From: Candidatus Krumholzibacteriia bacterium
GTDB lineage: Bacteria > Krumholzibacteriota > Krumholzibacteriia > WVZY01
Length of the DNA stretch: 22,087 nt
NCBI GenBank assembly: GCA_036478295.1
Contig: JAZGDW010000293.1
Coordinates: 1 to 22,087, forward strand
Direction of reading: 5' to 3'
Position numbers and translations under genes: made by a program. The notes beneath the pieces are model-generated. The model was not told the origin of the DNA, ran no database searches, and was given only the letters and a program-made list of their open reading frames with translations. Each line of letters begins with the position of its first letter. Within the stretch, counting starts at the first letter, position 1. Below are positions 5,435-21,687 of this stretch, one piece after another.

Positions 5435-5463
5435 TTGACTTATGTCAAGTTTTCTGGTAGAAT
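5435..5463 (+). promoter_or_regulatory. Sigma70-type promoter for the CHRD gene, with an overlapping TTGAC-N4-GTCAA palindrome
   Basis: TTGACT (5435-5440), 17 nt, TGg-TAGAAT (5458-5463); perfect dyad TTGAC ttat GTCAA at 5435-5448. Confidence 0.6.
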
Positions 5464-5582
5464 GCTGCGCATTGGATCGCTCCGCCCGTGCCTCGCGGTG
5501 CCTCAGCAGCGCCGTCCGGCCCTGCCACCTACGTACCACTCGCAACGCCACGAGTCATTCGGAACCCAAGGAGGTTCGGACG

Positions 5583-7052
5583 ATGAGCAATCTGCCCCTG
5601 CGATTCGCTTCTCTTTCCCTTTTTGTCTTTGCACTTGTTGTGTCACCGACGTGGGCGGCTGCGGAGATTTGTTTCACCGCGACCATCGACGGTATCCAGT
5701 CGGGCACCGGCTCCCCGGCGACGGGTACCGCGACGTTGATCCTCAACGATGCCGAGACGGAACTGACGTACAACATCGAGTTCTCCGGCCTGCTCGCATC
5801 TGAATCCGCGGCGCATATTCACAGCGATGGCGAGGGTGGCGGCGTGGTTCACCCGCTGGTCCTGGGCACTCCCAAGATCGGTGTGTGGAAGAGCACCGAT
5901 GCCTCTCCACTCACGCCGCAGCGCGTGCAGGATCTGAAAGACGGTTTGCTCTACGTTAACATCCACTCGACCCTGCACCCAGCGGGTGAGATTCGAGGCC
6001 AGATTCTTTTCGGACCGTGTACGGAAACCTGTTTTTCGGCCACGGTCGACGGTATCCAGTCCGGCACCGGTTCACCGGCCACCGGGACCGGACTCTTCAG
6101 CTTGAATCACACGCAGACCGAGCTCACCTACAACATATCGTTCACGGGTCTCCTCGCCGCGGAGTCCGCGGCCCACCTTCACAGCGATGCCGAGGGCGGC
6201 GGCGTGGTTCACCCGCTGGTCCTGGGCACGCCCAAGGTCGGTGTGTGGAGAAATACAGACGCCTCTCCGCTCACACCACAGCGCGTGCAGGACCTCCTGA
6301 ACGGACAACTCTACGTCAACGTCCACTCGACCCTGCACCCCGCGGGCGAGATCCGCGGGCAGGTCCTTAGCGGGGCGTGCAACGCCACCTGCTTTACGGC
6401 TTCGGTCGACGGCATCCAGTCGGGGACGGGCTCGCCGGCGCTGGGCGATGCGTCGGCCATTCTCAATCATACGGAGACGCGCCTGACCGTCCACGTCACC
6501 TACTCCGGCCTGCTCGCGGCCGAATCCGCGGCACACATTCACAGCGACGCCGAGGGTGGCGGCGTGGTTCAGCCGCTGCCCGTCGGCACCACCAAAATCG
6601 CCAGCTGGAAATTCACCGATCCGTCCCCGCTCACGCCGCAGCGCGTGGCGGACCTGAAGAGCAACCAGCACTATGTCAACATCCACTCGACCCTGCATCC
6701 GGCGGGAGAGATCCGCGGGCAGTTCATTCAGGGTCCGTGCAACCCGACGGCAATCGGCCCGATCCCCCAGGCCACGGCGAGCCTGACACAGAACTACCCG
6801 AATCCGTTCAATCCGAATACGACGATCCGCTACGCGCTGACGGAACCGGGCCGCGTACGGCTCAGGATTTACGACGTCCAGGGACGCCTGGTACGGACGC
6901 TTGTCGATGAGATCGGCAGCCCCGGCCCCGGACAGACCGTCGTGTGGGACGGCACTAACGATTCCGGCCAGGCGGTCTCCAGCGGAATCTACTTCTACCG
7001 CCTGACCACCACGGGTTTCACGGCAACGAAGAAGATGGTGCTGTTGAAGTAG
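5583..7052 (+). CDS. Secreted protein with three tandem CHRD domains and a C-terminal FlgD-Ig/T9SS type-A-like sorting domain
   Basis: AAGGAGG RBS, ATG at 5583, signal peptide ending TWA-AA; three copies of AAH[IL]H...YVN[IV]HSTLHPAGEIRGQ (CHRD signature); tail LTQNYPNPFNPNTTIRY...WDG.N..G..VSSGIYFYRL...KKMVLLK; 489 aa. Confidence 0.9.
   Translation: MSNLPLRFASLSLFVFALVVSPTWAAAEICFTATIDGIQSGTGSPATGTATLILNDAETELTYNIEFSGLLASESAAHIHSDGEGGGVVHPLVLGTPKIGVWKSTDASPLTPQRVQDLKDGLLYVNIHSTLHPAGEIRGQILFGPCTETCFSATVDGIQSGTGSPATGTGLFSLNHTQTELTYNISFTGLLAAESAAHLHSDAEGGGVVHPLVLGTPKVGVWRNTDASPLTPQRVQDLLNGQLYVNVHSTLHPAGEIRGQVLSGACNATCFTASVDGIQSGTGSPALGDASAILNHTETRLTVHVTYSGLLAAESAAHIHSDAEGGGVVQPLPVGTTKIASWKFTDPSPLTPQRVADLKSNQHYVNIHSTLHPAGEIRGQFIQGPCNPTAIGPIPQATASLTQNYPNPFNPNTTIRYALTEPGRVRLRIYDVQGRLVRTLVDEIGSPGPGQTVVWDGTNDSGQAVSSGIYFYRLTTTGFTATKKMVLLK
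5670..6749 (+). repeat. Three intragenic tandem repeats with an exact 360-nt (120-aa) period
   Basis: Equivalent Cys codons at 5670/6030/6390 and 6018/6378/6738; long nucleotide-identical stretches such as ggcggcgtggttcacccgctggtcctgggcac (copies 1 and 2) and tccactcgaccctgca (all three). Confidence 0.95.
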
Positions 7053-10153: not shown

Positions 10154-11707
10154 CTAGTCTCTCGCCCCACCGAACTGCTTTACCGCCTCGGGGTCGCGCA
10201 CATAAGGCCGCACGTTTTCGGGGAACTCACGGGGACGGTAGAACTTCCTGAAATCCGAGTTGCGCCAGATCTCCCGGTCGCTGAGGAAATACGCCGTCTT
10301 GGCGCGCCCCAGCCCGCCGAAGAGGATCACGTCGGGGCGCTGCCGAACCACCCAGTGCCCGTCACCGGCCTGGTGCCCGTAGGCCAGCGACCGGTCCCGT
10401 CTCCCACGGGTGGCGATGTGCTTGTTGTTCAACCCCAGCATATCGATGGTCGACATGCCGGAGTAGTACGGAATGATCCCCGCCGCATTGAGGGCGACTA
10501 CGGTGTCCGACGGATAGTTTTCCTTCAGATAGAGACCGGTTGCCTTTCTCCTTGTGAAGCCCGTTCGCCACAACGCGATCTGTTCTCTGACGGGCATCTG
10601 GAAACTGCCCCCGATAATTGTTCCGTAATTATAATTTGCGACATGAAACGTGCTGATAACCACCAGCGCCACGATTACGACCGCCACGTGGAGACGGCGA
10701 AATCCTAGAACCACCGTCAAATAGATGACGGGAAGCACCGGCAGAAGCGCCCGGTGCCCGACGAGGTTGTCTCCACCCTTGATCGTGAGGTTGACGACGT
10801 AGAGGAGAATCACCACGAAGAGCGGAGTGGCCGCCGGTCCCATCACCTTGCGACGATGGGCGGCAAGATACACCAGGGCCAGAACGACCACAACCTTGGC
10901 CTTGATAAAATGGATCAAGTAGAGAAGACCCTGGCCGGTATTCGCCAGGCCGGCGCCAGCTTTTGCATGGTACGTATTGGGCACGAACGATCCGTAGTAG
11001 ACGCGGGCGGCGAGCACCACGGGAACTATCATAATCGCAAGCCACAGCAGGCACCTGCCGACCGCGAATGTCCTCGACCTCCAGGCGAGAAAGGCGATGA
11101 CCATTCCCGCGACCAGCACTCCCTCCGGGCGCGCAAAGATGGTCAGCGCGAGCACCAGCGGCAGGGTGAAGGAGCGCAGTGTTTTCCGCGCATCGGCCGC
11201 ATATGCGAACTGAAGCGCCAGGAGAACCATGCCGGCAAAGAAAATCGTCTCGAGTCCGTTACCCATGTAGAAGGCGAAGTCGCCGGTCCCCGCCAGGAGC
11301 GCGGGCGCTATCAACGACCGCGCCCTGGACAGTCCGACCCGGCGGCCGAGGAGGTACACCATCACTATGACAAAGAGGCTTGATGCCATGCTCATGCGCT
11401 CCGGCACGGCGGGCAGCGCCTCCGTAATGAGCCGGCCCACCGCGATGAACGCGACCCACAGCACGCTGGTGAATCCCTGGACTTTCATCCCATTGAATGT
11501 GAGTCCGTTACCTTCGAAGAGATTTTTTATGTAGACCAGGTAAATATACGTGTCGTCGCACGCCGCGTAAATCTCGCGAGCGTAGAATACCGAAGCGGCG
11601 AAAACCGCCCCCAATGCCACCGCGACGCCCAGTGTCGCGGGGATGGAGGCACCGTGACCGGTAGCCGGGCTCTCATTCAGTTGGTTGGCGGTTTCGACTT
11701 CGTGCAT
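10154..11707 (-). CDS. Polytopic membrane glycosyltransferase of the GT-C superfamily (ArnT/AftB-like)
   Basis: DD motif after the first TM helix (CDDTYI...KNL..GNGLTFNG..VQGFTS.LW), GLET, RPEG, PNTY.AK, many hydrophobic segments and a soluble C-terminal domain (AAG.IPYYS...IDMLGL). Confidence 0.78.
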   Translation of the reverse strand: MHEVETANQLNESPATGHGASIPATLGVAVALGAVFAASVFYAREIYAACDDTYIYLVYIKNLFEGNGLTFNGMKVQGFTSVLWVAFIAVGRLITEALPAVPERMSMASSLFVIVMVYLLGRRVGLSRARSLIAPALLAGTGDFAFYMGNGLETIFFAGMVLLALQFAYAADARKTLRSFTLPLVLALTIFARPEGVLVAGMVIAFLAWRSRTFAVGRCLLWLAIMIVPVVLAARVYYGSFVPNTYHAKAGAGLANTGQGLLYLIHFIKAKVVVVLALVYLAAHRRKVMGPAATPLFVVILLYVVNLTIKGGDNLVGHRALLPVLPVIYLTVVLGFRRLHVAVVIVALVVISTFHVANYNYGTIIGGSFQMPVREQIALWRTGFTRRKATGLYLKENYPSDTVVALNAAGIIPYYSGMSTIDMLGLNNKHIATRGRRDRSLAYGHQAGDGHWVVRQRPDVILFGGLGRAKTAYFLSDREIWRNSDFRKFYRPREFPENVRPYVRDPEAVKQFGGARD

Positions 11708-14171: not shown

Positions 14172-16322
14172 CTACTGCTGCTTCTCCAGTATGTCCTTAA
14201 AGCGGGGGTCGTTACGGATGGGGTCGAGGTCGGGGTCGGTCTGCGCCCACCCCTTAATGGTCGCATCGTCACGCATGCCGTCCAGGGACTTGCGAAAATA
14301 GCCGATTGCATCCTCGAGTTCACCGGCGAGGGAAAAGAAACAACTAATATTATAGAGAAGCATGGGATTGTGCGGATCCAACGATACCGCCCGCCGGGCC
14401 CACTCCAGACCTTTGTCACGTTCTCCCACTTCGACCATAACGGCCGCGCCCAGCCCGTACGCGCGGGAATCATCCGGGTGTTGCTCCACGTGTTTCTCGA
14501 CGTTTTCCGCGGCACGCTGATAAGCCGCCTCCGCTCCCGCTACCAGTTTCAGCCCCTTGTACGTTTGGGCGAGGAAGGACCGCGCCTGGTAATCCTCCGG
14601 CCTCATCAGGCACGCCTGCTCGAACAACTGGGCGGCCTTCTCCAACTTTCCCTGGCTCAAACAGCAGCGTGCATAGAAGTAATAGGCCTGGTAAAGCTTG
14701 GGGTTCTGCTTCAGGGCGGTTTCGAACTCTTGTTCCGCCTTCTCGTATTCCTCGTTCAGGCATGTGATGGCGTATCCGTGGGCCGCATGGGCTTCGGCAA
14801 GGCTGGAGTCCAGCTCGAGGGCCTTCCGACTCGCTTCGAGCGCCTTTTCGACGTGCTCTTTCTTTCGACCGCAGTCGGTGAAGAGAACGCAATAGCAGTC
14901 CGCCAGACCGGCATGGGCGAGCGAATAGTCAGGATCTCTCTCGATTGCGCTCGAAAACATTTCGATAGCTTTCTCGATGCTGGTGCGGTGCCATTGATAA
15001 AAGAGCTCACGACCCTTGAGGTACACGTCGTATGCGTGTACGTTCGTTGTAGCCGTTTTTTCCATGGCCTGCTTTTCTTTCGGGGTTAGCCTGATCTTCA
15101 GCGCGTGTGCAATGTTCTGCGAGATTTCGTCCTGGACGGCAAACACGTCCTCCAACTCACGGTCGTACCGCTGCGACCAGATATGGTACCCGTCTTCAAC
15201 ATTGATCAACTGGGCCGTGATGCGCAGACGATTGCCCACCTTCCGCACACTTCCCTCGAGCAGGGTTTTTACCCTGAGCTTCTTGCCGATTTCGCAAATA
15301 TCCTCGTGTCTCTCCTTGAACACGAACGACGATGTCCTGGAAACGACACGAAGACCTTCCACGTTTGTCAGGTCATTGATGATATCCTCGGCCATACCGT
15401 CGCAGAAATACTCCTGGTCCTTATCCGCACTCATGTTGGCAAACGGCAGCACCGCGACGGAGACCTGAGGGGCCGCTGCGGGCATTTCACCCCTGGATCC
15501 TGTCACAAAAAGCTTCTTGCGCAATGTTTTCAGCTCCTCTGCCAACTCGGATGCGCTCTGGTAGCGGTCATCCAACCGCTTTGCCAACGCCCTGGCTATG
15601 ATGTGCTCCATGTCTTCTGGGAGGTCGGCGACCAGACCGGTAATCGGCATTTGATCCTCATTCAGAATCGAATACACGACCGCCTGGTCAAAATCGCCCC
15701 GGAAGGGCAGCTGGCCGCTCACCATTTCGTAGAGAACCACGCCTAGTGACCAGATATCCGTTCGGTGGTCGACGTTCTCCCCCCGAGCCTGCTCTGGAGA
15801 CATGTAGTCGACCGTCCCCAGGGACGTGCCGCTCTTGGTCACCTTCGTACGCCCGGCGAGTTTCGCGAGCCCGAAGTCTGTTATCTTCACCTGGCCCGCC
15901 AGCGTTACCATAATGTTTGCGCTCTTGATGTCGCGGTGCACGACGTTCTTATCATGCGCAGCCTGAAGACCTTCAGCAGTCTGAATGCCGATGTCCAGCA
16001 CCTCTCTCAACTCCACCGGGCGCGATTGGATTCTCTCCTTGAGGCTTTCCCCATCGATGTGGGCCATGGAAATGAAAGTCTGATTGTTTGCCTCGTCGAT
16101 CTCATAAATCGTGCAAATGTTCGGATGGTCGAGCGACGCTGCTGCCTGAGCTTCGTGGATAAACCGGGTTCTACCGGCCGGAGTGCCGAATAGGTGTGGT
16201 TGCAGGAATTTCAGGGCGACAGTGCGTTTCAGCTTGCTGTCCTCGGCTTTGTAGACGACGCCCATGCCGCCTTCGCCGAGTTTCTTCTGGACTTTGTAAT
16301 GCAGTACCGTTTGACCGATCAT
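14172..16322 (-). CDS. Hanks-type Ser/Thr protein kinase with TolB-like domain and TPR repeats (cytoplasmic)
   Basis: GEGGMG, VALK, HRDIKSAN, DFG, YMSPEQ, DIWSLG; then SVAVLPFANMS...EYFCDGMAEDII...EGSVRK.GNRLRITAQL, helical TPRs and terminal DPDLDPIRNDPRF. No TM segment seen. Start at ATG 16322 (MIGQTVLHYK); 716 aa. Confidence 0.93.
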   Translation of the reverse strand: MIGQTVLHYKVQKKLGEGGMGVVYKAEDSKLKRTVALKFLQPHLFGTPAGRTRFIHEAQAAASLDHPNICTIYEIDEANNQTFISMAHIDGESLKERIQSRPVELREVLDIGIQTAEGLQAAHDKNVVHRDIKSANIMVTLAGQVKITDFGLAKLAGRTKVTKSGTSLGTVDYMSPEQARGENVDHRTDIWSLGVVLYEMVSGQLPFRGDFDQAVVYSILNEDQMPITGLVADLPEDMEHIIARALAKRLDDRYQSASELAEELKTLRKKLFVTGSRGEMPAAAPQVSVAVLPFANMSADKDQEYFCDGMAEDIINDLTNVEGLRVVSRTSSFVFKERHEDICEIGKKLRVKTLLEGSVRKVGNRLRITAQLINVEDGYHIWSQRYDRELEDVFAVQDEISQNIAHALKIRLTPKEKQAMEKTATTNVHAYDVYLKGRELFYQWHRTSIEKAIEMFSSAIERDPDYSLAHAGLADCYCVLFTDCGRKKEHVEKALEASRKALELDSSLAEAHAAHGYAITCLNEEYEKAEQEFETALKQNPKLYQAYYFYARCCLSQGKLEKAAQLFEQACLMRPEDYQARSFLAQTYKGLKLVAGAEAAYQRAAENVEKHVEQHPDDSRAYGLGAAVMVEVGERDKGLEWARRAVSLDPHNPMLLYNISCFFSLAGELEDAIGYFRKSLDGMRDDATIKGWAQTDPDLDPIRNDPRFKDILEKQQ

Positions 16323-16632
16323 GTCATTCCCAGCGGACGATGATGGAGTGAGACTGAGAGTCCGTACGGCGCAACGATCTGCTCGAACAGGCAAACAGAC
16401 CTCACTCGCCAGCGGCGAGCGGCTTGGGCTAACCTGGTTCGAAGAGATGCAGCGGAGCCACCCTTATACATCGTATGCCTAATTGAACAATATTTCAATG
16501 CCGATCTGTCAACTGTCAATATCACACAACTGCTTTTGTGAATGGATGTTACACAGACGACGTGCGGGAGGGCCGCCCTGGCCGCACTCCTCAGAGCCTG
16601 GTCGGGGCGTTCCACTCGTGGAGCTTACTCGT

Positions 16633-19600
16633 TCAAATCATCTGCTCGGCCCGCAAGAACTCCCGGGCGTTGCTAACGACCCTGTCGATGATCCGCAGCT
16701 TGATTTCGCGCCGTTTCTTTGTTTCGCGCACGTCGATGTGCTCCCACGGCCCAAAGGCCTGTATGAGCCGGCCGGCGACGAGGTGCTCGACGAAACGACG
16801 AGTGAAGTCCTCGCCTTCCAGCAGCTCGAGGTCCCGCAGCAGGGCTTTGAGCTCCGGCTCCGGATCAGCGAGCAGCGTCCGCACGTCCTCGCCTTCGACG
16901 CCGCTGTCCAGAAGAAGACCCAGGCGAAAGATATCCTTGACCAGGCTGAGCGGGGTATTCCTCCCACCCCGACCATACTCGAGGTTCAGCACCGGTTTGC
17001 CAGCGGCCGCCTGCACCTCGCCGGCCAGCGGTGTGAGTTCCGCGCCGTGGGAATTGGCGCGGTCCATGACGATAATCGTCTTGATACTCTCGAGAGTGTT
17101 TCGTATCTCCTCGAACGGAAATGGACGGTAGGTCTTCAGCGCGAGGAGTCCGACGCTCAGTCCCTGCTCGCGCAGCTCATCCACGGCATCCATGGCCGTT
17201 CCCTCCGTAGAACCCATGGCAACGACAACAACCCGGGCGTCGTCCGTGCGGTAGTCGCGGATCCTCCGGTAGTCTCTGCCCGTCAGTTCGGCAAACTCAG
17301 CGAACACCTGGTCGATGATCGCCGGCAGGGTTTTTTGCGCTTCGGCCAGCGTCCTTACGTGCTCCGAATAGTAATCCTGCAACGCTACGGGGTTGTACGT
17401 ACCGCCCGTCTTGAGAAGACTATGCTCGGGGTCGTACTCTCCGACAAATGCCTGCACCGCTCCGTCGGACAACGTGTCGAGCATGTCCTTGTTGTGTGTA
17501 ACGATGAACCCATCCTGGTTCAAAAACGCCGGGAGACAAGCCGTTTCCGCCGCCTTCTGCGCGATGAGGGCGAAATCGTACGCCTCCTGCGCGTTTCTCA
17601 CTATGAAGTGAATCCAGCCGTCGTCCCGGAACTGGTAGAAGTCAGTGTGGCCCGCGTGGATATTCAGGGGCGCGTTGGTCTCGCGCGCCCCGACGTTAAC
17701 CACAACGGGCAGCCGCAACGACGCCGCAAGGAGGCCACCTTCCTTGCCGAGGAGCATTCCTTGTGAGGCGGTGGAAGTAACCGCCCGCACACCACATGCG
17801 GCCGCTGCGATGATGGCCATGAACGACGAGTGCTCGGACTCGGTATGGATGAATTCCGTATCGACCTTGCCGTCCGCCCAGAACTGCGAGTAGGTCTGCC
17901 CGACTTCCGTACTGGGAGTAATCGGAAACATCGCAAACACGCCGGGGTTGATCTGCCGCCACGCCTCCGCGATGGCCTCAGAGCCGGTCAGCAGCTTCTC
18001 GGGCGGAGCTTGTTCGAAACCAGAAGTCTCGGCCGCCGCCCGGCTGGGCGTTGCGGCACCTTCACAATCCGACAGCGCGGCGTCGCGGTAGGTATTCCAG
18101 AACGCATCCATGTTGCTCTGGACGATCTTCGCCGTATTGGCCTTGCCGGCAAATTCTTTGGCGAGAAGTTTCTTCCACCGCTCCTCGAGATAGTCTGCCG
18201 GAAAAGCGATCCCACGGTTCACCAGTGCCTTCAGGACACACGCCAGCAGCGTCACGGTCTCGGGTACACGATAGGATTCCCTGGCGGCGGTAGCATCCGC
18301 GACGACCAGTACCTGGGTCGCCGGAATTTCGTATCTGCGCCGCGCTTGGTCCGCGGCCAGCGGCGTGTTCAGGATAACGACACCGTCACCCACCACACCG
18401 TCCCTCCATTGCGATATCGGCCAGCCGGCGTCGTCCGGATTGACCACGATGCTGATGAAATACTTCTCGAAACTCGCCTGCGTTCTCAGCTCCCTGCCGC
18501 TGACCGTAAAGTTGGTGCCGACCGGCGCCCCGCGGCGCTCCGGTCCGTAGTCGGGCGCGGCCTTGCCAAACAAACCGACTTCTTTGAGAAGGCTGACGAA
18601 AAGCTTAGCCGCCGTCACTCCGCCGTCCCCCGCACGGGCGAATATGCGACCGGCAAGCGGGTGGGGGCCGACGACGGCCCGGTTTTTTTGTTTTTCTTTC
18701 TCATCCATTGCCGACCCGGTGGCGGCTTCGATGATTTCCTTCGCTTCGCGGGCCACGGCCGCTTTGGCGGCCCTTGCTCTGGCCAACGCGCGCTGATCCT
18801 CGATGAGCGTCGAGTATTCCTGGATAAAAACTGCGTAGAGCTTTTCCCCGAGTTCGGGATCCTTCAGCTTGTAGCCCTCCGAATCCAGGCAGCGCCGGAC
18901 GTTTTCGAGCACTCTTCGCAGAAACGGTTTTGGCTTTCCGCCTTCATCGACCCAGGAAAGTTCGTCGATATACGATTGCGTGTACCCGGCGAGGCCGAAC
19001 AGGTGTGGTTTCGTCGTGAGGTCCTTGAGCCGCTTTGCGTTTTTCTCCCGCAGGTACTCGGTCAATTCCTCCATTAACTGGTCTTTCCTCTGGGTCAGCC
19101 TGTCTTCGGCCTGTAGTTTTCGCCAGTTCATGAGCAGTTGTCGCTCGAGTTCCCGGAACTGCATCTCGTGCTCGCGCGAGACAAAGTTGCCCTTCTTATC
19201 GAAGTGCTGGGCAAACCGTCCCTCGGTCTTGAGCCACTGGAGCAGTGTTACTTTGTTCTCCGGTCTCACCCGCGGATTGAACGCGCTTGGTTCCGGCAGG
19301 GTCAACCGCGTCTCGCCGTTCTCGATCTCGAACAGCGGCCAGAACCCGCACTCGACGGCGAGTTGCGATTGTTCGGTGGTAAGTTCGGCCGGCGTCCTGT
19401 GGCCGATCGTACAATTGCTATAGCAGACGACGAACGCGGGCCCGTCGTGCTGGACGGCCTTCTTCAACTTGTTGATAAAATCAATCTGGTGGGACGGGGA
19501 CACCTTGGCGACATAGACACTATTGTGCGCGCCGGCGATGTGCTCGATGTCTTTTCGAAATTGCGGCTTGCCGGGGATCACTTCACCAATGGGCGACGTG

Positions 19601-21375
19601 CTGGTCGCCGCGCCCATGGGAGTGGCGCTCGAGCGTTGAATGCCGGTATTCATGTAGGCGCCGTTGTCGTAGCAGAAATAGACCGAGTCCTTCGCGAGTC
19701 CCCGCTCGAGAAGACCGCTCAACGCCTGCAAACCGATATCGTACGTGCCGCCGTCGCCCGCCCATCCGAAGAACTTCAGTTTCTTCTTCATCTTGCCCCG
19801 CTTGCGCAGGTAGCGGTACGCCGCGTCCATTCCTTCCAGATTCGCGCCCAGACCGCCGAAGGTCGTGTGCAGCCAGTTTGGCCACGCGGTATCCGGATAG
19901 ATGGTCGTGGCCACTTCCGCGCAACCGGTCGCCCCGCTGTAGATGCACTCGATCTCCGGGTCCAGATCGGCGACGGACCGCACCACCAGATTGAACGCAG
20001 TGGCCACCGGACACCCCGCACAAAGCCTGTGCCCCGAGCTGATCTCCCCGTCGTGTTCCTGCAGCTGCGCCAGCGGCCGGTCGTCTTCGATCTTTTCGGG
20101 CTCGGGCATCGTCGTTTCTACCTGCGAGATAATTTTTTCGAAATCGTCATCACGGGTCCGGTTCGGCATAAACGGCGCGCGCAAAACACCGACCTTCTCC
20201 GTTATCATCTTGCCCTGCGCCACAGAGATCACTTCGTAATGCGCGGTCACCACCGCGTCGAACGAACCTTCGGACCTGTTGATGACCGCCTCGAGCGATG
20301 CATTTTCAATAACGTCCGCCTTTTCGAAAGCCTCGCGCTGTCGATTGGTGCCATTGCTCCCAGCGGTAGGAATCGCCGTGATGCGGAACCCGTCGAGCTG
20401 CAGACGGGCCGCCAGCGCCTTGTCGTATTCACTCATTCCGTAGACAAGTACGTCGGCCAGGGGACGGACTATTTTCCGCCACTGCTTGCCGTTTTCGCTG
20501 GAATAGGTATAGAGGAGCGGCCGCTGTGCGGTGCTGAGGTCGCCCGGCGTGTGCAGGATTTGCACGATCCGCCGACCGGAAAGGGATTTCTTGCCCGAGG
20601 TAGCATCGTAGACCATCTGGTATTCCGCGCATTCGTCCAGCCGACGGGCGTCCAGTGCTTCCCGCTTGAGGAGATCGCCTTCGACCTCGATGCGTTTGCC
20701 GTACACGCCGTCGAACACCTTGGGCTGGGCAGCCTTGACCAGCTTCCCGTCCACCATCTCGATGGCGGCGGCGTCGAGCGGGCAGACGTGGTGGCACATC
20801 GCGCACCCCTTGCAGTAGTCGTAGTCGACCAGGTTCAGCTTGCCGGTCACCGGGTCAAGTCGAATGGCGTCTTCCGGACACCAGATCCCGCACTGCTCGC
20901 AGACGTTGCACTTTTCCGGATCGATGACGGCGACTGTCTTCGCCCACGATCCCGTGTACGTGTCTCTGGCGGTGAATTTTTCCCGGATCACCGCACCGGG
21001 TGTCACTTCTTCCCAACCCCAGCGGCCTCTCGAGAAAGGGGTCCAGGATTCCGCTTGCAGGTACCGCGACACCAACGCATTACCCTCGTCAGTGTTCGAT
21101 TCCTTGCCGTTGCCCTGGGCGAGTACGGCACAGGTGCCGTCGTCGTACTCGGCGACCAGCGCCAGCGGATCCCGGCTTCCCTTGCAGGTAACGACCGAAA
21201 AACGGGCGTCCTTCCAGCCCTCCTTGAGCGGCCATTGTCCGTCACTGATAATCTGGTGCGCCATCTGCCTGCCCTGCTCGCCGAGATAGGATTTCGTGAA
21301 ATCCCCCACGGCTATTGACTCGATGGTCAGGGCGTCCGTTCCTCGGAGTTTTACGACGCCGAACGGTGTATTCAT
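16633..21375 (-). CDS. Single-chain 2-oxoacid (probably pyruvate/2-ketoisovalerate):ferredoxin oxidoreductase, domain order delta-beta-gamma-alpha
   Basis: AGAGGAG RBS; TGSW plus CNVCEQCGIWCP and DYDYCKGCAMCHHVCP (delta); GHRLCAGC, ATGC, GDGG.YDIG, DNGAYMNTG.QRS, SNC (beta); RAGDGGVTAA, YGPERRGAP (gamma); TGSEA.A, FPITPST, ESEHS, TASQG (alpha). Uninterrupted 1580-aa ORF. Confidence 0.92.
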   Translation of the reverse strand: MNTPFGVVKLRGTDALTIESIAVGDFTKSYLGEQGRQMAHQIISDGQWPLKEGWKDARFSVVTCKGSRDPLALVAEYDDGTCAVLAQGNGKESNTDEGNALVSRYLQAESWTPFSRGRWGWEEVTPGAVIREKFTARDTYTGSWAKTVAVIDPEKCNVCEQCGIWCPEDAIRLDPVTGKLNLVDYDYCKGCAMCHHVCPLDAAAIEMVDGKLVKAAQPKVFDGVYGKRIEVEGDLLKREALDARRLDECAEYQMVYDATSGKKSLSGRRIVQILHTPGDLSTAQRPLLYTYSSENGKQWRKIVRPLADVLVYGMSEYDKALAARLQLDGFRITAIPTAGSNGTNRQREAFEKADVIENASLEAVINRSEGSFDAVVTAHYEVISVAQGKMITEKVGVLRAPFMPNRTRDDDFEKIISQVETTMPEPEKIEDDRPLAQLQEHDGEISSGHRLCAGCPVATAFNLVVRSVADLDPEIECIYSGATGCAEVATTIYPDTAWPNWLHTTFGGLGANLEGMDAAYRYLRKRGKMKKKLKFFGWAGDGGTYDIGLQALSGLLERGLAKDSVYFCYDNGAYMNTGIQRSSATPMGAATSTSPIGEVIPGKPQFRKDIEHIAGAHNSVYVAKVSPSHQIDFINKLKKAVQHDGPAFVVCYSNCTIGHRTPAELTTEQSQLAVECGFWPLFEIENGETRLTLPEPSAFNPRVRPENKVTLLQWLKTEGRFAQHFDKKGNFVSREHEMQFRELERQLLMNWRKLQAEDRLTQRKDQLMEELTEYLREKNAKRLKDLTTKPHLFGLAGYTQSYIDELSWVDEGGKPKPFLRRVLENVRRCLDSEGYKLKDPELGEKLYAVFIQEYSTLIEDQRALARARAAKAAVAREAKEIIEAATGSAMDEKEKQKNRAVVGPHPLAGRIFARAGDGGVTAAKLFVSLLKEVGLFGKAAPDYGPERRGAPVGTNFTVSGRELRTQASFEKYFISIVVNPDDAGWPISQWRDGVVGDGVVILNTPLAADQARRRYEIPATQVLVVADATAARESYRVPETVTLLACVLKALVNRGIAFPADYLEERWKKLLAKEFAGKANTAKIVQSNMDAFWNTYRDAALSDCEGAATPSRAAAETSGFEQAPPEKLLTGSEAIAEAWRQINPGVFAMFPITPSTEVGQTYSQFWADGKVDTEFIHTESEHSSFMAIIAAAACGVRAVTSTASQGMLLGKEGGLLAASLRLPVVVNVGARETNAPLNIHAGHTDFYQFRDDGWIHFIVRNAQEAYDFALIAQKAAETACLPAFLNQDGFIVTHNKDMLDTLSDGAVQAFVGEYDPEHSLLKTGGTYNPVALQDYYSEHVRTLAEAQKTLPAIIDQVFAEFAELTGRDYRRIRDYRTDDARVVVVAMGSTEGTAMDAVDELREQGLSVGLLALKTYRPFPFEEIRNTLESIKTIIVMDRANSHGAELTPLAGEVQAAAGKPVLNLEYGRGGRNTPLSLVKDIFRLGLLLDSGVEGEDVRTLLADPEPELKALLRDLELLEGEDFTRRFVEHLVAGRLIQAFGPWEHIDVRETKKRREIKLRIIDRVVSNAREFLRAEQMI

Positions 21376-21584
21376 TTTCTGCTCCTCTTTGTCAGGCGTG
21401 CGCGGACGCCCCGTGTATCATCTCTCTATTATAGGCAGGTGCGATACGTCACCTGAGGTTGCGGTTGTGCTCTTGTGCTCTTTGGCTCAAGCCTCAGATT
21501 TCTCTCGTCAGGAAATCGTGTATGAGAGTGGGCCTCTTCAAGATAACGCAATTCCTGTGACAACAAAAGTTCGCCCGTCTCTGT

Positions 21585-21598
21585 TTGACAAAAATCAA
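21585..21598. promoter_or_regulatory. FNR/CRP-family-like box upstream of the oxidoreductase
   Basis: TTGAC-AAAA-ATCAA, a 9/10 match to the FNR consensus TTGAT-N4-ATCAA. A minus-strand TATAAT also lies at 21433-21428. Confidence 0.45.
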
Positions 21599-21650
21599 TT
21601 TTTCGCGTTTTTACACTTCACGGATCAGCGAAATCGCGGGCACTGGGGGG

Positions 21651-21687
21651 AAAAAAACGAACCCAGGTCCCTGTGGACCCGGGTTCG
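21651..21687 (-). terminator. Intrinsic terminator after the CTD-bearing gene
   Basis: Minus strand cgaacccgggtcc-acag-ggacctgggttcg (13 bp with one G-U) followed by T7, starting 33 nt after the stop at 21720. Confidence 0.8.

Follow-up and report, generated by a model that had tools for sequence, protein, structure and literature searches.

The gene at positions 16633..21375, on the minus strand of a 22,087-nucleotide stretch of the Candidatus Krumholzibacteriia bacterium genome (contig JAZGDW010000293.1 of assembly GCA_036478295.1; this whole stretch is referred to here as the window), encodes a one-chain 2-oxoacid:ferredoxin oxidoreductase (OFOR) of 1580 amino acids (aa) with the domain order delta-beta-gamma-alpha. 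The architecture is real and conserved and apparently undescribed, in an enzyme class that is itself known. OFORs are key enzymes of carbon metabolism in anaerobes and of CO2 fixation, and few chain layouts are known among them. A one-gene, three-cluster OFOR that differs in ancestry and order provides a test of how far the domains tolerate rewiring, and in heterologous work a single gene could take the place of a four-gene Por operon.

The open reading frame (ORF) runs from 21375 to 16633 through 1580 codons without an internal stop, and Pfam and NCBIfam place the same domains along its translation. Pfam recognizes Fer4_21 (aa 149-207), TPP_enzyme_C (483-651), POR (the gamma domain, 915-1095), POR_N (1139-1358) and PFOR_II (1380-1474), and NCBIfam recognizes PorD_KorD (133-209), PorB (443-741), PorC_KorC (911-1076) and PorA (1127-1484), so that the chain order corresponds to domains V-VI-III-I-II. 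A first-pass annotation, made from the sequence without database searches, had described one intact ORF with this order; the two databases agree with it, and its domain coordinates match approximately. It was also right that the order is not a circular permutation of either alpha-gamma-delta-beta or gamma-delta-alpha-beta, and the cluster cysteines, thiamine pyrophosphate (TPP) motif and other motifs that it quoted are all in the translation.

The delta domain (domain V; 20740..21024, minus strand, as are all parts of the gene given below) carries eight cysteines for two [4Fe-4S] clusters (C156, C159, C162, C166, C188, C191, C194 and C198), as seen by Pfam, NCBIfam and alignment. In the beta domain (domain VI; 19141..20055), identified by Pfam, NCBIfam and structure-database matches, the TPP-Mg motif comprises G540-D541-G542 ... 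D570-N571, the proximal-cluster cysteines are C452, C455, C485 and C655, and N576 is also present. The CoA-binding gamma domain (domain III; 18076..18660; Pfam and NCBIfam) has its P-loop in a family-specific variant, and the alpha part (domains I-II; 16924..18003; Pfam, NCBIfam and alignment) contains T1153, E1181 and R1231, of which E1181 corresponds to the catalytic glutamate of domain I. The TPP motif and substrate residues are all present in the 1580-aa chain. Section 3 of PMC13768988, a 2026 review of pyruvate:ferredoxin oxidoreductase (PFOR) diversity, defines the OFOR superfamily by domains I, II, III and VI; the chain contains all of these, together with the proximal-cluster cysteines, the two-cluster domain V and the TPP/Mg motif.

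Protein searches gave 36 matches, 27 of which are collinear homologues (44-97% identity). In 23 of these the match extends over at least 94% of the query, and a separate domain scan of the homologues confirmed the order. These 27 form clade A, with labels that include Candidatus Latescibacterota, Krumholzibacteriia, Gammaproteobacteria and Bacteroidota. Contigs of other sequencing runs, each about 95% identical and without an indel within the ORF, cover 16400-19081 and 19961-21600 in run X1 and 18562-19229 in run X3; no one contig of these runs spans the entire gene, and every inter-domain junction is bridged because the X1 and X3 contigs jointly cross them. The possibility of an assembly artefact between the domains, for which the first-pass annotation had proposed a check across the linkers, is thus ruled out by the collinear homologues, the confirmed order and the junction-bridging contigs.

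All cofactor ligands, including the 12 cluster cysteines, are invariant across 97 aligned rows that span about 20% identity. This invariance and the 23 near-full-length homologues argue against the chain being a catalytically dead or decaying relic, which we consider highly improbable even with the long tree branches and a fragmented metagenome copy in its favor. The copy in question, a clade-A gene (L088:1273-6094), is split into six frames in one metagenome contig, through sequencing error or decay.

Among known enzymes the best match by both sequence and fold is the four-subunit PorABCD of M. acetivorans (PDB 9bt4), which has the same domains I, II, III, V and VI and the same cluster and TPP motifs. 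However, PorABCD consists of four chains, whereas here there is one chain with about 600 extra residues, and its gene order is gamma-delta-alpha-beta (examined sections of PMC13768988, and reference loci) rather than delta-beta-gamma-alpha. The NifJ-type PFORs (D. africanus 1b0p, M. thermoacetica 6cin) are likewise single chains with three [4Fe-4S] clusters, TPP, and delta before beta, but are ordered alpha-gamma-delta-beta with an EKR linker according to the same sections. The EKR domain (domain IV) has no Pfam match in the 1580-aa protein at E up to 0.01, and the NifJ model TIGR02176 scores 217 bits against a cut-off of 911. The C-terminal extension is without cysteine, and a disulfide lid of the domain-VII type is therefore absent, unlike in NifJ-type PFOR. 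Two-subunit OFORs and 2-oxoglutarate:ferredoxin oxidoreductases (S. tokodaii 5b46-48, M. marinus 6n2n), as far as the examined text describes them, have gamma directly N-terminal of alpha, as here, but are without domain V, have beta on a separate chain, and are much more distant in sequence (E 7e-7 to 3e-4). Oxalate oxidoreductase (OOR; M. thermoacetica 5c4i) has related beta, alpha and delta domains, but in three chains, and the OOR models score 163 bits against a cut-off of 500 and 193 against 590. In the PITP motif OOR has an arginine in place of the threonine, which is kept here as T1153.

In the examined sections of PMC13768988 the order of one-subunit PFORs is alpha-gamma-delta-beta and the gene orders given are C-D-A-B, D-A-B-C and D-E-A-B-C; the delta-beta-gamma-alpha order is absent from these sections. 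No paper on this order was found in the open literature, including passages of PMC12337175 and PMC8091585, the scope being text other than figures and preprint supplements. The first-pass annotation had proposed an independent fusion with an order not previously described; the second part agrees with the sections of the review examined, but the fusion is no one-off, since the delta-beta-gamma-alpha family comprises about 100 sequence clusters in several phyla.

We favor, with moderate confidence, an ordinary soluble homodimeric OFOR that would convert pyruvate and CoA to acetyl-CoA, CO2 and reduced ferredoxin. Solved OFORs have one common dimeric core at any chain number (PMC13768988, section 3), and the mechanism with TPP, CoA and three clusters is laid out in section 2 of the same review. 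With all of the ligands retained, the rewired chain is most simply read as carrying out unchanged chemistry: with all catalytic OFOR domains on one chain in the order delta-beta-gamma-alpha, the protein would act as a homodimer, oxidizing pyruvate with CoA and passing the electrons to ferredoxin. The likely role of the extra segments is that of structural spacers, through which the domains could take up their normal places despite the new order; more speculatively, the insert folded between delta and beta may also influence the choice of docking electron carrier. The chemistry is probably conventional. Pyruvate-type models rank top among the NCBIfam models for both alpha and beta, and the Vor models fall below Por (209 vs 316 bits for alpha, 214 vs 254 for beta), scores that are still compatible with activity on Vor-type substrates.

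Several observations weigh against pyruvate as the substrate, or against so ordinary an enzyme. The PorA and PorB scores (316 and 254 bits) lie below their cut-offs of 550 and 405, and no equivalog cut-off is reached; the PorD_KorD subfamily model is the only one of these past its cut-off (67 vs 60). Family-specific residues adjoin the substrate site, namely a glutamate following R1231, HAGH in place of the HGDH or HCDH of most Por references, and the altered gamma P-loop, so that substrate or CoA handling may differ. The T/E/R/N set is not known to distinguish pyruvate from branched-chain substrates, and the structural model of aa 1-910 has a predicted template modelling score (pTM) of 0.59 and is of low confidence near the TPP loop. 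PFOR specificity is also variable, as described in section 5.1 of PMC13768988.

An OFOR with the same mechanism and another preferred 2-oxoacid (2-oxobutyrate, branched-chain or aromatic), or with a broad range, would account for the family-specific residues and for scores under all equivalog cut-offs, and it accords with the loose specificity boundaries of OFORs in that section; the five other POR_N ORFs of the genome could then serve pyruvate. We nonetheless think it rather unlikely, given that the pyruvate-type models are the best for alpha and beta, that residue 1153 is a threonine and not the arginine of OOR, and that the alpha domain is only 18% identical to the Kor-type copy of the genome. 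With regard to the genome at large (91% complete), no E1 dehydrogenase match above the cut-off was found in it, and E1 is present in three close relatives that carry the delta-beta-gamma-alpha gene. The five other POR_N ORFs and the presence of E1 in gene-carrying relatives indicate that the gene is an addition and not the sole route from pyruvate. It is a patchily distributed extra OFOR, likely moved horizontally, that exists alongside others in the same genome.

The family also includes a second group, clade B, which was first seen as three weak matches of about 2,100 aa with the same domain order. A clade-B query yielded 109 matches, among which are 70 full or partial relatives (clusters) with labels Deltaproteobacteria, Syntrophobacteraceae, Desulfacinum infernum, D. 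hydrothermale DSM 13146 and Desulfosoma caldarium. Clades A and B are about 20% identical. Clade B is present in 6 of 401 genomes sampled from its phylum, and its proteins are mostly annotated as hypothetical; the carriers include cultured sulfate reducers, so the clade-B enzyme can be studied. The clade-B gene is followed by a large Fe-S protein gene in three of three loci, and then by a NuoE/F-like flavoprotein gene in the two loci whose contigs reach that far. In these loci (L148:498-9303, L150:137-8858 and L146:69-3745) the first protein downstream is 1600 aa long with only a small FeS domain recognized, and the flavoprotein is 1230 aa long with NuoE/F-like parts and long unknown segments. 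From gene order, the clade-B OFOR, the Fe-S protein and the flavoprotein may form a three-gene electron-transfer module. Partner genes of this type were not found beside clade-A genes in seven loci. A conserved clade-A operon was considered and rejected, as the neighbors differ among the seven loci and those in the window are unrelated.

About 600 residues lie outside the OFOR domains, in four segments (aa 1-117, 213-440, 746-905 and 1485-1580); these, the clade-B proteins and the giant proteins described below go beyond what the first-pass annotation had noted. The N-terminal extension (aa 1-117; 21025..21375), known from the predicted structure and a clade A/B profile alignment, is a predicted beta-rich alpha/beta domain with no Pfam match and no signal-like hydrophobic stretch. 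The insert domain (aa 213-440; 20056..20739) is predicted from structure and alignments to consist of a beta-meander and a Rossmann-like subdomain. The beta-gamma linker (aa 746-905; 18661..19140) is highly charged with long helices predicted by the model and alignment, and the C-terminal extension (aa 1485-1580; 16636..16923) is conserved in the family, as seen in the homologue alignment. Profile comparison between clades A and B with hhalign aligns the inserts at probability 97.65 (E 2.6e-12) and the N-terminal extensions at probability 85 (E 6e-6), the homology of these extensions being probable, and gives no alignment of the beta-gamma linkers. That the two clades share extra domains indicates one origin for both. 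The insert is common to clades A and B and to some giant-embedded copies; in the source phylum it is present in 4 of 208 genomes, all within the family of the source organism.

The 228-aa insert is predicted as one compact unit (mean predicted local distance difference score, pLDDT, 91; pTM 0.89), and all 97 aligned rows have R304, G329, D373 and P401 unchanged. Searches found nothing below E 0.02 in Pfam across 13 members, nothing below E 0.04 among PDB sequences, and no usable match in the Atlas; a second copy was not found in the genome, and there was no profile match to the N-domain of the genome's biotin carboxylase. Foldseek gives no whole-domain match, the known fold families considered being RCK/TrkA, XdhC-like and pre-ATP-grasp, and its weak matches, with TM-scores of at most 0.33 and root-mean-square deviations of 6-22 A, are mostly to Rossmann-type proteins (XdhC-like, TrkA and dehydrogenases). 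The conserved insert is a candidate new accessory domain, and these search results do not prove a new fold. It could be a regulatory or partner-binding module, either a ligand-sensing Rossmann-like unit or a dock for an electron partner, in a regulated OFOR: it is confidently predicted as compact, is homologous across clades of about 20% identity and keeps its four invariant residues, its weak matches are mostly of Rossmann type, and in clade B the Fe-S protein and flavoprotein genes follow. We judge such a role unlikely in view of the low TM-scores and high deviations, the lack of a GxGxxG motif and of conserved metal ligands in the aligned rows, the two giant-embedded copies that have the same order and no insert, and the clade-A loci without the clade-B partner genes. 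Three further ideas drew no support: a pre-ATP-grasp identity of the insert is unsupported by single-sequence comparison, no internal repeat relating the N-terminal extension to the insert was found, and the extra segments, considered as generic giant-protein spacers, were not found outside OFOR modules in the giant stretches examined.

Four Omnitrophota ORFs, long or giant, also contain the delta-beta-gamma-alpha order, and one of them is sister to clade A. That one, a protein of 2,865 aa, contains the whole module at 47% identity after a 700-aa leader with a hydrophobic start, and its sister position has support of 99-100 in four trees. Two insert-bearing modules stand in tandem in a frame that is 23,636 aa long or longer. 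A tight delta-beta-gamma-alpha module without the insert is present in each of two other frames, at least 5,236 and at least 14,775 aa long, and a contig-end frame contains delta, a weak insert match and beta. One giant-embedded copy lies next to the pair of clade A and the 2,865-aa protein (Shimodaira-Hasegawa, SH, support 92-93 in two trees; unsupported in a third). The tight modules are near-canonical, with linkers of only 4-50 aa (L136, G989:C9:3000-21172; L138, G985:C81:11000-30999), and are natural templates for a minimal single-chain Por. Of 401 Omnitrophota genomes sampled, 159 have a match of beta type, which in almost every case lies in an ordinary ORF of 300 aa. At least five, among the matches listed, have one in a long frame; one of these five is the holder of the 2,865-aa-type protein, and the others hold the four further frames described above. 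Giant Omnitrophota proteins (archaeovorins) are described in the available main texts of bioRxiv 10.1101/2023.11.21.568195 and 10.64898/2026.06.07.730766 as strings of divergent metabolic domains; these main texts, taken without supplements, contain no mention of ferredoxin, oxoacid or PFOR. The four long ORFs hold the same domain order as the window gene, but the protein of the latter stands alone and has no hydrophobic leader.

On a bolder reading, the enzyme would have been built in Omnitrophota giants and acquired its extra domains within them, before passing as a gene of its own to Krumholzibacteriota/Latescibacterota, Gammaproteobacteria, Bacteroidota and Desulfobacterota; we hold this possible but doubtful on present sequences. 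If true, other bacteria would obtain new enzyme architectures from giant proteins, and the delta-beta-gamma-alpha family, with its cultured carriers, would be the first tractable example of such export. The Omnitrophota link offers a concrete means of testing whether giants only collect enzymes or also export them.

Ancestry was examined with 80 reference loci among the matches listed for generic beta motifs of clade A, and with trees from quick searches; none of these 80 loci has the delta-beta-gamma-alpha fusion. Identity to most four-subunit references is 38-43% for alpha and 42-46% for beta, and domain identity to typical NifJ rows is 24-28%. Profile scores against four-subunit and NifJ sets are 380 and 145 for alpha, 70 and 0 for gamma, 85 and 23 for delta, and 339 and 85 for beta. 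Because the reference set was fetched with clade-A motifs it favors four-subunit similarity, but NCBIfam nonetheless agrees. The earlier assignment to the four-subunit type is supported as a matter of similarity, each domain being closer to four-subunit Por than to NifJ, and the family may descend from that type.

In the trees the NifJ rows are monophyletic without the family (SH 96-100), which is therefore not nested in NifJ. Unconstrained trees place the family outside the sampled four-subunit references and on the NifJ side (SH 98; 96.8/93), a placement that may be explained by long-branch attraction, and clade B has a very long branch and no stable position. The two tight giant copies nest on short branches among ordinary four-subunit Por, so the order can arise from the four-subunit type. 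Approximately unbiased (AU) tests reject none of three groupings on a set of 21 rows, reduced from 38 by omitting clade B, the second row of the outgroup and 12 others: clade A with NifJ (p 0.566), all delta-beta-gamma-alpha forms (p 0.547), and the insert-bearing forms (p 0.733). The highest likelihood gain in these comparisons, 8.09, is for a single clade of insert-bearing modules. Grouping of the domains with NifJ had been named beforehand as an outcome that would overturn the four-subunit assignment; nesting within NifJ is not seen, while the sister relation is among those left unrejected. On these sequences the order may either have arisen once in giants, with inserts gained later, or have arisen twice.

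A separate question, bearing on origin only, is whether the order derives not from fused four-subunit genes but from a rearranged NifJ-like single chain in which the delta-beta junction was kept. Adjacency of delta and beta is common to NifJ and this chain, the clade-B beta motif resembles that of NifJ, in unconstrained trees the four-subunit references are set apart from NifJ, clade A and the giant copies that bear the insert, and the AU test leaves clade A with NifJ standing. We consider such a rearrangement quite unlikely, since every domain has the higher profile score for the four-subunit type (with the biased reference set), the EKR domain was not found, and the tight copies of two giants nest in four-subunit Por.

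Upstream of the gene, a ribosome-binding-site-like GAGGAG (21382..21387, minus strand) is followed 6 nt further on by the ATG, and a terminator-like hairpin with a 13-bp stem and T-tract (21658..21687, minus strand; consensus match only) lies at the 3' end of the upstream gene. The hairpin would terminate that gene, so the OFOR gene likely begins its own transcript. Directly downstream, at 14172-16394 on the minus strand, is a Ser/Thr kinase gene with tetratricopeptide (TPR) repeats, an adjacency not kept in homologues. Elsewhere in the window are a gene for a 517-aa hydrophobic membrane-type protein (10154-11707, minus strand) with no Pfam match at E 0.001, and one whose product combines three CHRD repeats with a FlgD/secretion-tail C-terminus (5442-7052, plus strand).

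Other OFOR-related genes were seen in passing. The frame G000:C24:11543-16288 (minus strand) joins P0031 in the alpha tree and has 1550-1590-aa counterparts in two relatives; the product may be inactive or altered. In a four-gene OFOR set at G000:C77:20126-24441 (plus strand), gamma and alpha are separated by a 572-aa frame whose C-terminal part is delta. P0029 and P0030, of about 1050 aa, are fusions of a 2Fe-2S domain, a flavin oxidoreductase, ferredoxin domains and an OFOR beta.
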